From assembly GCA_000002445.1 (NCBI GenBank), contig CP000068.1, forward strand, positions 1,376,001 through 1,440,000: a DNA stretch of 64,000 nt, in the 5' to 3' direction. The position numbers were made by a program. Positions 27,744 to 30,700 of the stretch are shown piece by piece. The first letter of the stretch is position 1, and the number at the start of each line of letters is the position of its first letter. This DNA is from Trypanosoma brucei. Lineage: Eukaryota.

Positions 27744-30700
27744 TCTTCTTATAATATTTGTACATACACATTCACAACATTATCATTATCATTATGATCA
27801 ATGTTATAACTTTAACTAATAACCGTAATATAAACAAAATAAAAAAAGTAATAAATATTAGAATAGCACTCATTTTCCATACCCTACCACCCTATTTCTT
27901 TATACCCAGAGGACACAGTCATACATGTTTTACTAAATTTTCATATTTTTCAAATTCTAACATTTTCATCAAAAAGTGTTAAAATATATCAAATTCTCTT
28001 AAAAATCGACCAATTCCCCTTAGAAAGCTAGAACTCTACTATACTTACAAAAGCAGCAGCCATACACAGAGCCAATTTCTTATTGACGAGGAGACTGAAA
28101 TCTTTGCAAGTTTCGCCTTCCCATTTGCAGCCATTTTCACAGTTTTTTATTGGTTTATTTGGAGCACTTTTTACCTTCAGAGTTTGTTCCTGCTTCTTCT
28201 CCTGTTCCTTGACGTTTTTCCTCTTCTCCATCTTTGGTTTTGCAGTAGTTTCCTGTTGTATCTGTGGTGCTATTCCATATGCAGTTATTTTCTGCTGCGC
28301 AGGTTGCGTTTGTTTTGTGTTTGTTTCAGTCTCTTTCCGCGACTTCTTTATTTGTTTTGTTATCCCCACCAGGTCCTGGACTGCTGCTTCCAGTTGCCGC
28401 TGCTGCATAAGCTGTTTCTTTCAGTGCTTCGAGGCTGGTTACGAGAACTTCCGCTTTTAGGTTTGCTTGTTCCAACCCCCTTAGTGCCTCTGCTGCTTTT
28501 GCTGTCTCTGTTTCTCATTCTATCGTCGGAAAGCCTTTGCCTGCTGTGGCTGCTTCCTGGTACTGTACACACATTCCTCCGTTTGTCTCCGATTTTCCAC
28601 TACAACCGCCTGTGCCGGTTCCTTCTAGGTAGCCGAGACCGAAGTATTTGCCGCCACCACTGCCTTGCGGCTTTGAAATATGGTTGTTGAAGGCGATTAC
28701 GGCGCTTTCTATGGCTGTTGCCGTTGCCGCTTTGGGTTTGAGCTTTTTTGAGCTCGGTCCAGCGTGCACTGTGTAAATCGGGTTGCCGTCCTTTGCCGCT
28801 GACCAGGTTGTGGCACCTGCTGGCATTGTGCAGTCCTGGCAGCACGTTTTATCTTTCAAGTCGGTGGCGGTTGATTTCGCTCACAGACAAAGAAAGTCGA
28901 CCCTTATCGACGTCCCTGCTTTTGATCCCTTTAGTCCTTGAGTTTTCCCGCATTCCGGCTTTCTATCCGCTGTGTTTGCTGGAAAGTCGGGATCTGCGGC
29001 CTTTTTGGTGCCGTATATCGCCTTGTCGCGGGCCGTTTCGAATTCAGCTTGCTAAGTTGCTGGGTCGGTGATTACCGTTGATGTCGTTGCTTGGAAGGCT
29101 TTTTCTGCGTAATACTTTAGACGTTGTTTTGTGTTGTCTGGTAGCTTGTCTGCTCCCTGGCGGTTCCGGCCACCTCAACGCGGTGCCAGGGTCCAGTACC
29201 CAGTATCATCGGGGGAAGCCAAGAGCCAGCAGCGTTCCTTTCATGGGGAACAATGCTTTGCTCCGGCTACGGCATCATACAGCACAAGGATCAGCAGCGT
29301 CTTGCTGGGACACCGTTTTTCACTTGTCGGACCCTCGGCACGTGGCTAGCGTGTCATCAGCAGTATCATCCGCACTAAGATGCTGCTGTCCGGTGATGTG
29401 GAAGAGAATCCCGGCCCGTCGTTGCGCGGGATGCAGTGGAACTGCGCCGGGCTATCTCAAGGAAAGAGATTAGCACTCCACAAAACCCTTGTTGATTATG
29501 AGCTTGTCTGCTGTTGGTACATGGTCGTTTTTCTGCATGTTCTTCAGCATCTTGGCACTGGAGACCCAGAAATCATAGTATTTGTCCCACGTCCTTTGCT
29601 GTTCCCCAGCTTCTGCAGGGCGTTTTGTGTGCGCTGTTTTCGCCGGCGGCGGGTCTTCGCTGAACAGCGCTTTGAAACTGGCGCTGGACGCGGACATGTT
29701 GAGCGCACCAATACTGTTCGCGAATCTTTGTACTGCTGCTTTGACATCAGCAGCTACCACTGGTGCTTCTAACGCATTGTAAACAATACACAAGACGTCA
29801 AAAGCTTGTGCATTGGTTCCTGCTTTTGTCGCTAAGACGCCTTGGTTGCTTAAAAGTTGGAGGTTTGTCATAGCGACTAGCACCACAAGTCCTACAGTGA
29901 AGATCTGCCTGCCGTGCTGTACCTACAACTTGCGTCTGTTTTTGCTATCTAACGTTTTCGCCAGAAGAAAGCCACAAACATTTAAAAAAAGTATAGATGT
30001 TGGCGAAAATGCTATATATGCAGCATCTAAAGTTGCACTTTGTTGCTTTGGGTTTCCATGTCTTTGACTTTTACACTTTCTTAGCCGTAAAAAATTTCCT
30101 TTCTTTGAAAGCGCCCCCACAAATTCTTTCATATCGAAAATCCCAATTCTCTCCACCTAATACATAAGTTTCTATTTTCTCCATATCCTTCGAATGAAAT
30201 TGTCTTTATTTTAACTCTTTATACCAAGTAAGATTTTTTACAATTAACTTCGATTTATCTTCCCAGGCAATTGCAGGTCCCGGAAAATGAATGAATGGAA
30301 CCTTTCCAACATCCCACTGAGCAGAGTAGAAAAGAAAAGCCCCTCATAATATAGGCCAATTATTACTCTCTCTACAAAACAAATATCTTTGCCCAACAGC
30401 TTCTTCTTGAATTACACTCCAAATTAGCAACGGTTTGTTGATACTTTCTTTTGACCACCATTCCTAACATCCTTTAAGAAACTCTCCAAATGCATTTTCA
30501 TATTTCTTAAACACCCAGACTCTTGCTCTTAATCCACTGCCACTAAGATAAGGGTTTCCCATTAGGAGGTGAATTTAGTAAGTGAAGTAATTTTTTATCC
30601 ACTTCTTTCCTGTAGCCAGCATCGAAAAACCAACAACATCTCTTCACATGCTCTTTTTGAATATGCTCTTCACTGAACTTATCTTCACTTTCTGCAGTAC

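Follow-up and report, generated by a model that had tools for sequence, protein, structure and literature searches.

The variant surface glycoprotein (VSG) array on chromosome 5 of Trypanosoma brucei TREU927 contains a short piece of the retrotransposon ingi that has a complete 5' end and no 3' end, is bracketed by a perfect 12-bp target-site duplication, and was probably produced directly by target-primed reverse transcription, either on a 3'-truncated ingi template or by internal initiation. The piece (hereafter the insert) interrupts a VSG sequence in a 64,000-nucleotide (nt) stretch of contig CP000068.1 (assembly GCA_000002445.1, positions 1,376,001 to 1,440,000), which we call the window; it covers chromosome 5 from about 1,376,001 and lies in an array of minus-strand VSG genes. 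Coordinates below are window positions on the forward strand. The structure of the insert is real, exact, and far beyond chance. We regard it as most likely an isolated and rare by-product of the ingi machinery that leads nowhere for the element and belongs to no amplifying family, and most likely also as one of a small recurrent class of aberrant but genuine ingi retrotransposition products.

The copy itself is already catalogued: a 2015 BLAST table of TREU927 (PMC4660242, Supplementary file 1) lists NC_007278 1405155-1405496 as element 1-341, '5' ok, 3' tr', 'RIME A', and the 100 nt of upstream sequence given there are identical to window 29056-29155. Its duplication and its absent tail are undiscussed in PMC4660242. 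We found no account of a tailless ingi class in the accessible literature, a search outside which lie the primary ingi target-site papers, where an earlier mention is possible.

Results

Anatomy of the insert

Two copies of AGCTTGTCTGCT, identical at 12/12 positions (29143-29154 and 29501-29512), enclose 346 nt (29155-29500), and no third match to this 12-mer exists across the whole 64-kb window even when one mismatch is tolerated. The enclosed sequence begins exactly at ingi base 1 (CCCTGGCG) and continues through ingi nt 342 (29155-29496), with 97.4% identity by BLAST alignment to the full ingi at 53502-53842. Its last four nucleotides, TATG (29497-29500), have no counterpart in any ingi copy examined, and the 3' junction reads TTGATTATG followed by AGCTTG. 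Ingi nt 343-5250 have no match in or adjoining the insert, which keeps 6.5% of the ingi length. It lacks an A-rich tail and any part of the usual ingi 3' end, ...GAAGAAAATT(C/T)CA(A/G)AAA(A)n, and it has no capacity to encode the endonuclease, reverse transcriptase, and RNase H (EN/RT/RNase H) region, its open reading frame (ORF) being limited to the first 39 codons. The window holds just three ingi-like segments (8479-8690, 29155-29496, and 53502 to about 58800), and no detached ingi 3' part lies near the insert within it.

These observations confirm most of what a preliminary description of this DNA had reported, namely an exact 12-bp duplication with only two matches in 64 kb and the first ~342 nt of ingi followed by TATG with neither 3' region nor A tail; the homology that it noted to the full ingi also holds, but the identity is 97.4% and not the ~95% that it gave.

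The insert derives from ingi and not from the short element RIME, because it passes the point at which the two differ: the RIME junction lies at about ingi nt 250, where the RIME ORF P0019 changes from ingi 5' to ingi 3'-end sequence after MLLSGDV, and the insert extends ~90 nt beyond it. The insert and the full ingi at 53502 have six subfamily variants in common (TTCC vs TGCC at nt 10-11 and CGCGG vs CGTGG among them), and the insert carries about six private changes (1.8%), so the insertion event is not recent. Over its opening 79 nt the insert aligns with the same stretch of four other ingi copies, and this stretch corresponds to the 5' signature of ingi-clade retroposons, described as the Pr77 promoter and hepatitis delta virus (HDV)-like ribozyme region (PMC1874656, PMC4035085, PMC2323293); an Rfam scan of 28900-29800 for the ribozyme family gave no match. 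The start of the ORF encodes the 2A-like motif DVEENPGP, which PMC3708506 assigns to ingi.

Target site and interrupted VSG

Insertion sites of Tbingi and TbRIME (the ingi4 subclade) have the signature AxxxxxxxTxxxGTxGGxTxxx^xTxTxxTxxxxx, which we took from the text of PMC3820030, where ^ marks the first-strand nick and the next 12 nt become the duplication, whose length is fixed at 12 bp in ingi-clade elements. At the insert, ACGTTGTTTTGTGTTGTCTGGT followed directly by AGCTTGTCTGCT agrees with this signature, in the correct register, at 8 of its 10 specified positions. Scores of at least 8 occur at 0.07% of window positions on both strands (0.1% on the plus strand), the bulk scoring 2-3, and 21 distinct complete TREU927 ingi and RIME copies from the PMC4660242 table average 6/10. 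Together, the 12-bp duplication, the 8/10 target site, and the complete 5' end argue for endonuclease-dependent target-primed reverse transcription and not for capture at a random break.

The interrupted VSG lies on the minus strand, and the ingi piece is therefore antisense to it. With 29155-29512 removed, the VSG frame is colinear over 265 amino acids, at 84% identity, with VSG-1815 (P0011, M4SXE8, PF13206), the sole significant match among 5.8 billion proteins, and a 170-amino-acid reconstructed query across the insertion site is 92% identical to the same protein. On the minus strand AGCTTGTCTGCT encodes ADKL; since VSG-1815 has a single ADKL (...HVPTADKLPDNTKQ..., in the longer context ...HVPTADKLPDNTKQRLKYY...), the duplication arose with the insertion. 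In the window VSG the initiator Met of VSG-1815 is replaced by Ile and two in-frame stops (TDPAT*Q and FLCL*AK) occur, and the gene is therefore a pseudogene whatever the insert does. The claim that removal of the insert and one duplication copy restores an uninterrupted VSG frame thus stands as regards phase and local colinearity and fails as regards the uninterrupted frame.

Two further features of this VSG may be recorded. The C-terminal 30 amino acids of VSG-1815 (residues 255-284) align to a different frame of the window VSG (28600-28859), and VSG-1815 itself, compared with the window VSG, seems to be frameshifted. Directly 3' of the pseudogene lies a (TAT)n microsatellite of ~80 units (27500-27739).

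Other 5'-only ingi copies

Short ORFs that start in the ingi leader were used to retrieve DNA from the T. brucei group, which gave four 5'-only copies with readable DNA, the insert included; three of the four combine a canonical duplication with the absence of a tail. The first of the additional copies is on chromosome 10. In T. b. gambiense (L001) it runs from ingi nt 1 to 420 and then directly into T+GGCTAGTCTACA, with GGCTACTCTACA upstream (11/12), and in T. equiperdum (L005) TGGCTAGTCTACA is found on both sides (13/13); the same locus is listed in the TREU927 table as element 1-420. This copy has neither A tail nor filler and scores 7/10 on the target signature, and it was inserted before the three subspecies diverged and has been intact since. 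The second, on T. equiperdum chromosome 11 (L004), contains ingi nt 1-324/326; ACGAGTTCCACG comes next and agrees at 10/12 positions with the upstream ACAAGTTCCACC. This match falls exactly at the junction, where ~0.7 such matches are expected per 10 kb, and the copy has no tail and a signature score of 6/10. Of the further 5'-only copies that the preliminary description had proposed to look for, two with duplications of 12-13 bp were thus obtained, both with endpoints other than that of the insert, so that the duplication-flanked copies end at ~325, 342, and 420. The remaining copy, on T. equiperdum chromosome 4 (L002), contains ingi nt 1-307 (the TREU927 table lists element 1-301), and its upstream 12-mer is not repeated within 4 kb on either side. 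Two other candidates, the short ingi N-terminal ORFs P0004 and P0041, are in fact full-length ingi with point stops.

In TREU927, 5'-intact copies of high identity end at nt 294, 301, 320, 321 (three loci), 326, 341, 420, and 450. Ten loci thus end within 156 nt (294-450), against roughly as many across nt 451-5241, several of the latter being artefacts of chunk or contig edges; the table is noisy raw BLAST output, in which rows recur and chunk edges leave artefacts, and this hot zone is only indicative, although the endpoints are plainly uneven in distribution. Such a concentration is not what random deletion predicts, and it could possibly mark a hot spot for truncated templates or internal initiation. 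Endpoints at nt 320-326 occur at five independent TREU927 loci and at the T. equiperdum chromosome 11 locus, a cluster that hints at a preferred initiation point or a small family.

The 3' junction

Several explanations for the position and sequence of the 3' end were tried and set aside. A polymorphism within ingi does not account for TAT or TATG: TTGATGAGCGGAT is read at this point in three ingi DNA copies that continue beyond nt 342 (at window 53502, on T. b. gambiense chromosome 10, and on T. equiperdum chromosome 8), and LVDERIAF without an extra codon is found in six T. brucei-group ingi N-terminal proteins and in the window's own ingi ORF. Resemblance between the end of the ingi piece and the duplication, measured as the longest shared word, gave p = 0.07 and 0.04 and then 0.88 at the third locus, and is not significant. 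An R-loop alignment model, in which that end is compared in register with the target upstream of the nick, gave p = 0.018, 0.33, and 0.010 at the three loci and failed on 12 independent TREU927 loci from the PMC4660242 table (Fisher p = 0.89). Overlaps at the junction span 0-3 nt: AGC, 3 nt, at the insert only if TAT is an insertion, 0-1 nt on chromosome 10, and 2 nt on chromosome 11. A fold predicted for ingi nt 1-500 places nt 342 inside a hairpin arm, which is not decisive for truncation at a structural boundary; the 346-nt piece folds well (z = -3.5).

Table 1. Features of the insert, its host VSG, and the reference ingi copy in the window
Feature	Position	Strand	Remarks
Ingi endonuclease target-site motif, 22 nt upstream of duplication, ACGTTGTTTTGTGTTGTCTGGT	29121-29142	+	
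5' target-site duplication copy, AGCTTGTCTGCT	29143-29154	+	
Ingi nt 1-342	29155-29496	+	Complete 5' end, leader and first 39 ORF codons
79-bp 5' signature of ingi-clade retroposons	29155-29233	+	Function (Pr77 promoter / HDV-like ribozyme region) from literature
2A-like DVEENPGP motif	29395-29418	+	Start of ingi ORF (ATG at 29380); from translation
4-nt filler TATG	29497-29500	+	From end of ingi homology to 3' duplication
3' target-site duplication copy	29501-29512	+	
Chimeric 130-amino-acid ORF	29380-29772	+	~40 amino acids of ingi N-terminus, then antisense VSG sequence
Interrupted VSG pseudogene	28028-29904	-	B-type N-terminal domain; C-terminal domain and glycosylphosphatidylinositol (GPI) signal at 28028-28408
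Full-length degenerate ingi	53502 to ~58750-58800	+	Reference copy, same subfamily as insert

The chimeric ORF that runs from the insert into the VSG is probably meaningless: no identical product is on record, and its homologues span the ingi part only. Look-ups of the VSG ORF that carries the junction and of VSG-1815 likewise gave no entry as a gene product.

Other ingi sequences

The full ingi at 53502 has its ORF in at least three pieces (762, 608, 216 amino acids...) and is not flanked by a target-site duplication (5' flank ATGACAAATTTC, 3' flank TAGATGCTATCA), which suggests that ingi copies recombined after it had inserted. A third ingi-like 5' end lies on the minus strand at 8479-8690 and is ~80% identical across nt 1-231; the flank upstream of it (GAAAATAAATTCCGATAGAGCTCAC...GCTGCACAC) recurs in the multi-locus '1-220/231' group on chromosomes 1, 2, 3, and 7 in the TREU927 table, and this segment therefore belongs to a larger dispersed repeat unit, perhaps associated with DIRE or RHS. 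On T. equiperdum chromosome 8 (L003 6306-6992, CM010679.1), an inverted fragment of ingi nt 4576-5249, at 91.6% identity, stands head-to-head with the 5' end of a full-length ingi. Finally, the Schistosoma mansoni protein Smp_186480 (P0042, 163 amino acids, annotated 'LOW QUALITY PROTEIN') clusters at 90% identity with endonuclease proteins of T. brucei ingi, probably because of trypanosome DNA contamination in the schistosome assembly.

Discussion

Origin of the insert

The series of events that we consider probable is as follows. The ingi endonuclease would have nicked the bottom strand of the VSG gene or pseudogene at a site fitting its usual recognition pattern, and the nick would have primed reverse transcription, the template being either an ingi RNA with its 3' end in the region of nt 342 or a longer one on which synthesis began internally. 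The four or so bases of TATG may have been added without a template at the start of synthesis, after which reverse transcription would have continued to the true 5' end of the RNA, and a second nick 12 bp away would have given the standard 12-bp duplication. The product would be what we see, a tailless, 3'-truncated, non-coding ingi copy. Initiation without base pairing, accompanied by a few non-templated bases, is plausible, and annealing of an A tail to the primer would not be expected in the ingi clade because the signature has T, not A, at the conserved positions of the duplication. Direct observation covers the anatomy of the insert and its target motif, the presence of the duplicated codons just once in the closest VSG, and further loci with this architecture; the type of RNA template (truncated, or internally initiated) and the origin of TATG are what we infer.

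Several points weigh against direct retrotransposition. The chromosome 4 copy, with a signature score of 4/10, looks like a rearrangement product, and since it has no duplication, deletion or rearrangement must yield some 5'-only copies. Evidence for the empty site is at the level of protein, through VSG-1815, which is known as a protein alone and is a close relative but not a proven ortholog of the interrupted VSG. TATG has no explanation in ingi homology, and with ~1.8% private substitutions in the insert, later small changes at the junction are possible.

The strongest competitor is secondary deletion, which the preliminary description had offered as its second explanation: a full ingi would have inserted with its 12-bp duplication and later lost ~4.9 kb, from nt 343 through the A tail. 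T. brucei joins breaks by microhomology-mediated end joining, and if TAT is an insertion, ingi GAGC (nt 343-346) shares a 3-nt microhomology with the AGC that starts the duplication; the truncated chromosome 4 copy, moreover, shows that truncation by rearrangement occurs. We nevertheless consider such a deletion unlikely. Out of ~5 kb or more of possible positions, it would have to end on the right no more than 4 nt from the boundary between element and duplication, with zero residues of the A tail left behind, and breakpoints within 0-2 nt would be required again, independently, at two other loci. Joining through AGC also predicts ...TTGATGAGCTTG..., whereas ...TTGATTATGAGCTTG... is seen, and the clustering of endpoints at nt 294-450 is unexpected from this process as well.

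The insert could instead belong to a distinct, amplifying short non-autonomous element, a 5'-only unit comparable to NARTc with its own Pr77 promoter that is repeatedly mobilised in trans. What non-autonomous elements of the ingi clade have in common with their autonomous partners is just the 5' signature, and NARTc derives from the 5' part only (PMC2323293, PMC3820030); the 79-bp signature of the insert is intact, and the endpoints at nt 320-326 recur at several independent loci (five in TREU927 and T. equiperdum chromosome 11). Yet an endpoint at 341/342 is found at one TREU927 locus only, as far as the published BLAST table allows a partial test, and the three duplication-flanked copies end differently. 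A master copy would have no defined 3' end or A tail to transmit, and the six diagnostic variants of the insert are shared with the full ingi 24 kb downstream and not with the other 5'-only copies. We therefore think an amplifying element improbable. The first explanation in the preliminary description, an unusual short non-autonomous element mobilised by the ingi machinery, accordingly survives in one half: insertion by that machinery is supported by the 12-bp duplication, the 8/10 target site, and the two further copies, while the notion of a short non-autonomous element does not agree with an endpoint seen once in TREU927 and other 5'-only ends scattered over nt 294-450. Mobilisation through the conserved 5' leader, part of the same proposal, may apply.

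Endonuclease-independent capture, in which ingi cDNA or DNA was patched into a break in the VSG array or arrived by gene conversion from a paralogous VSG, appears very unlikely. VSG arrays are prone to recombination, and in L1 elements 3'-truncated tailless copies are typical of endonuclease-independent insertion. But such insertions normally come without a duplication of canonical length or an endonuclease motif, and the insert has exactly 12 bp and 8/10, together with an exact full-length 5' end that capture would not lead one to expect; gene conversion merely moves the question to the paralogue. An artefact of assembly is scarcely credible even in a chromosome 5 subtelomere, where VSG arrays with dispersed repeats are difficult to assemble, because a false join in a repeat would not leave unique VSG sequence perfectly duplicated over 12 bp and in phase with a related VSG, and because the chromosome 10 copy shows the same architecture in three independent assemblies.

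Implications for template selection

If direct retrotransposition is the right account of the insert, it bears on how the ingi/L1Tc machinery selects its RNA templates, since the elements that this machinery mobilises share the 79-bp 5' signature and differ in their 3' ends. Insertions with a perfect 5' end, a duplication and target motif of canonical form, and no 3' sequence or A tail argue that target-primed reverse transcription in the ingi clade can do without the 3' end, and this has consequences for the recognition of RIME, NARTc, and SIDER-type elements. We tentatively suggest, as a possibility that falls short of probable, that there is a recurrent class of tailless 5'-only ingi retrocopies with 3' ends concentrated at nt ~300-450. 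Were this true, the ingi reverse transcriptase could start on RNAs that lack the ingi 3' region and an A tail, the choice of template would be governed by the 5' leader (the Pr77 promoter and ribozyme region), and one would understand why the 5' signature is all that links RIME, NARTc, and SIDERs to their autonomous partners. Ingi nt 1-342 and 1-420 provide concrete substrates for a retrotransposition assay. The effect on VSG biology is small, as the array VSG was already defective and the insert is antisense to it; the insertion does place a potential Pr77 promoter inside a VSG array.

Comparison with known elements

The insert resembles several known elements in part. With ingi itself (Tbingi, ingi4 subclade) it shares the 5' end from base 1, the 12-bp duplication, and a fitting endonuclease site, whereas ingi has the EN/RT/RNase H region, the 3' region, and the A-rich tail, and the insert adds four bases at its 3' junction. 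RIME (TbRIME, 0.5 kb) is likewise short and non-coding, begins with the same 5' sequence, agrees in target motif and in the length of its duplication, and presumably relies on ingi proteins for its mobility. However, RIME consists of about nt 1-250 of ingi fused to the final ~250 nt, has an A-rich tail, and is multi-copy, whereas the insert reaches nt 342, has no 3' half, and has an endpoint unique to it. NARTc of T. cruzi, a derivative of L1Tc, resembles the insert in its 12-bp duplication and in having kept nothing of its autonomous partner but the 5' part, but it occurs in more than 100 copies of fixed structure with a poly(A) tail, and the insert is a single tailless copy in another species.

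The closest functional parallel lies outside trypanosomes. Mammalian L1 tailless retropseudogenes are 5'-complete and 3'-truncated, lack oligo(A), and are flanked by duplications at endonuclease sites (PMC5322556). These tailless or internally primed products are by-products of target-primed reverse transcription with preferred endpoints, and the human genome contains ~90 3'-truncated L1 copies with duplications (PMC5322556). L1 differs from ingi in retrotransposon clade and host, and its internal priming uses A-rich complementarity to a T-rich primer, whereas none was seen at the insert, where microhomology tests were negative or weak. With these differences, the insert appears best read, by analogy, as the ingi counterpart of the mammalian L1 tailless retrocopies.

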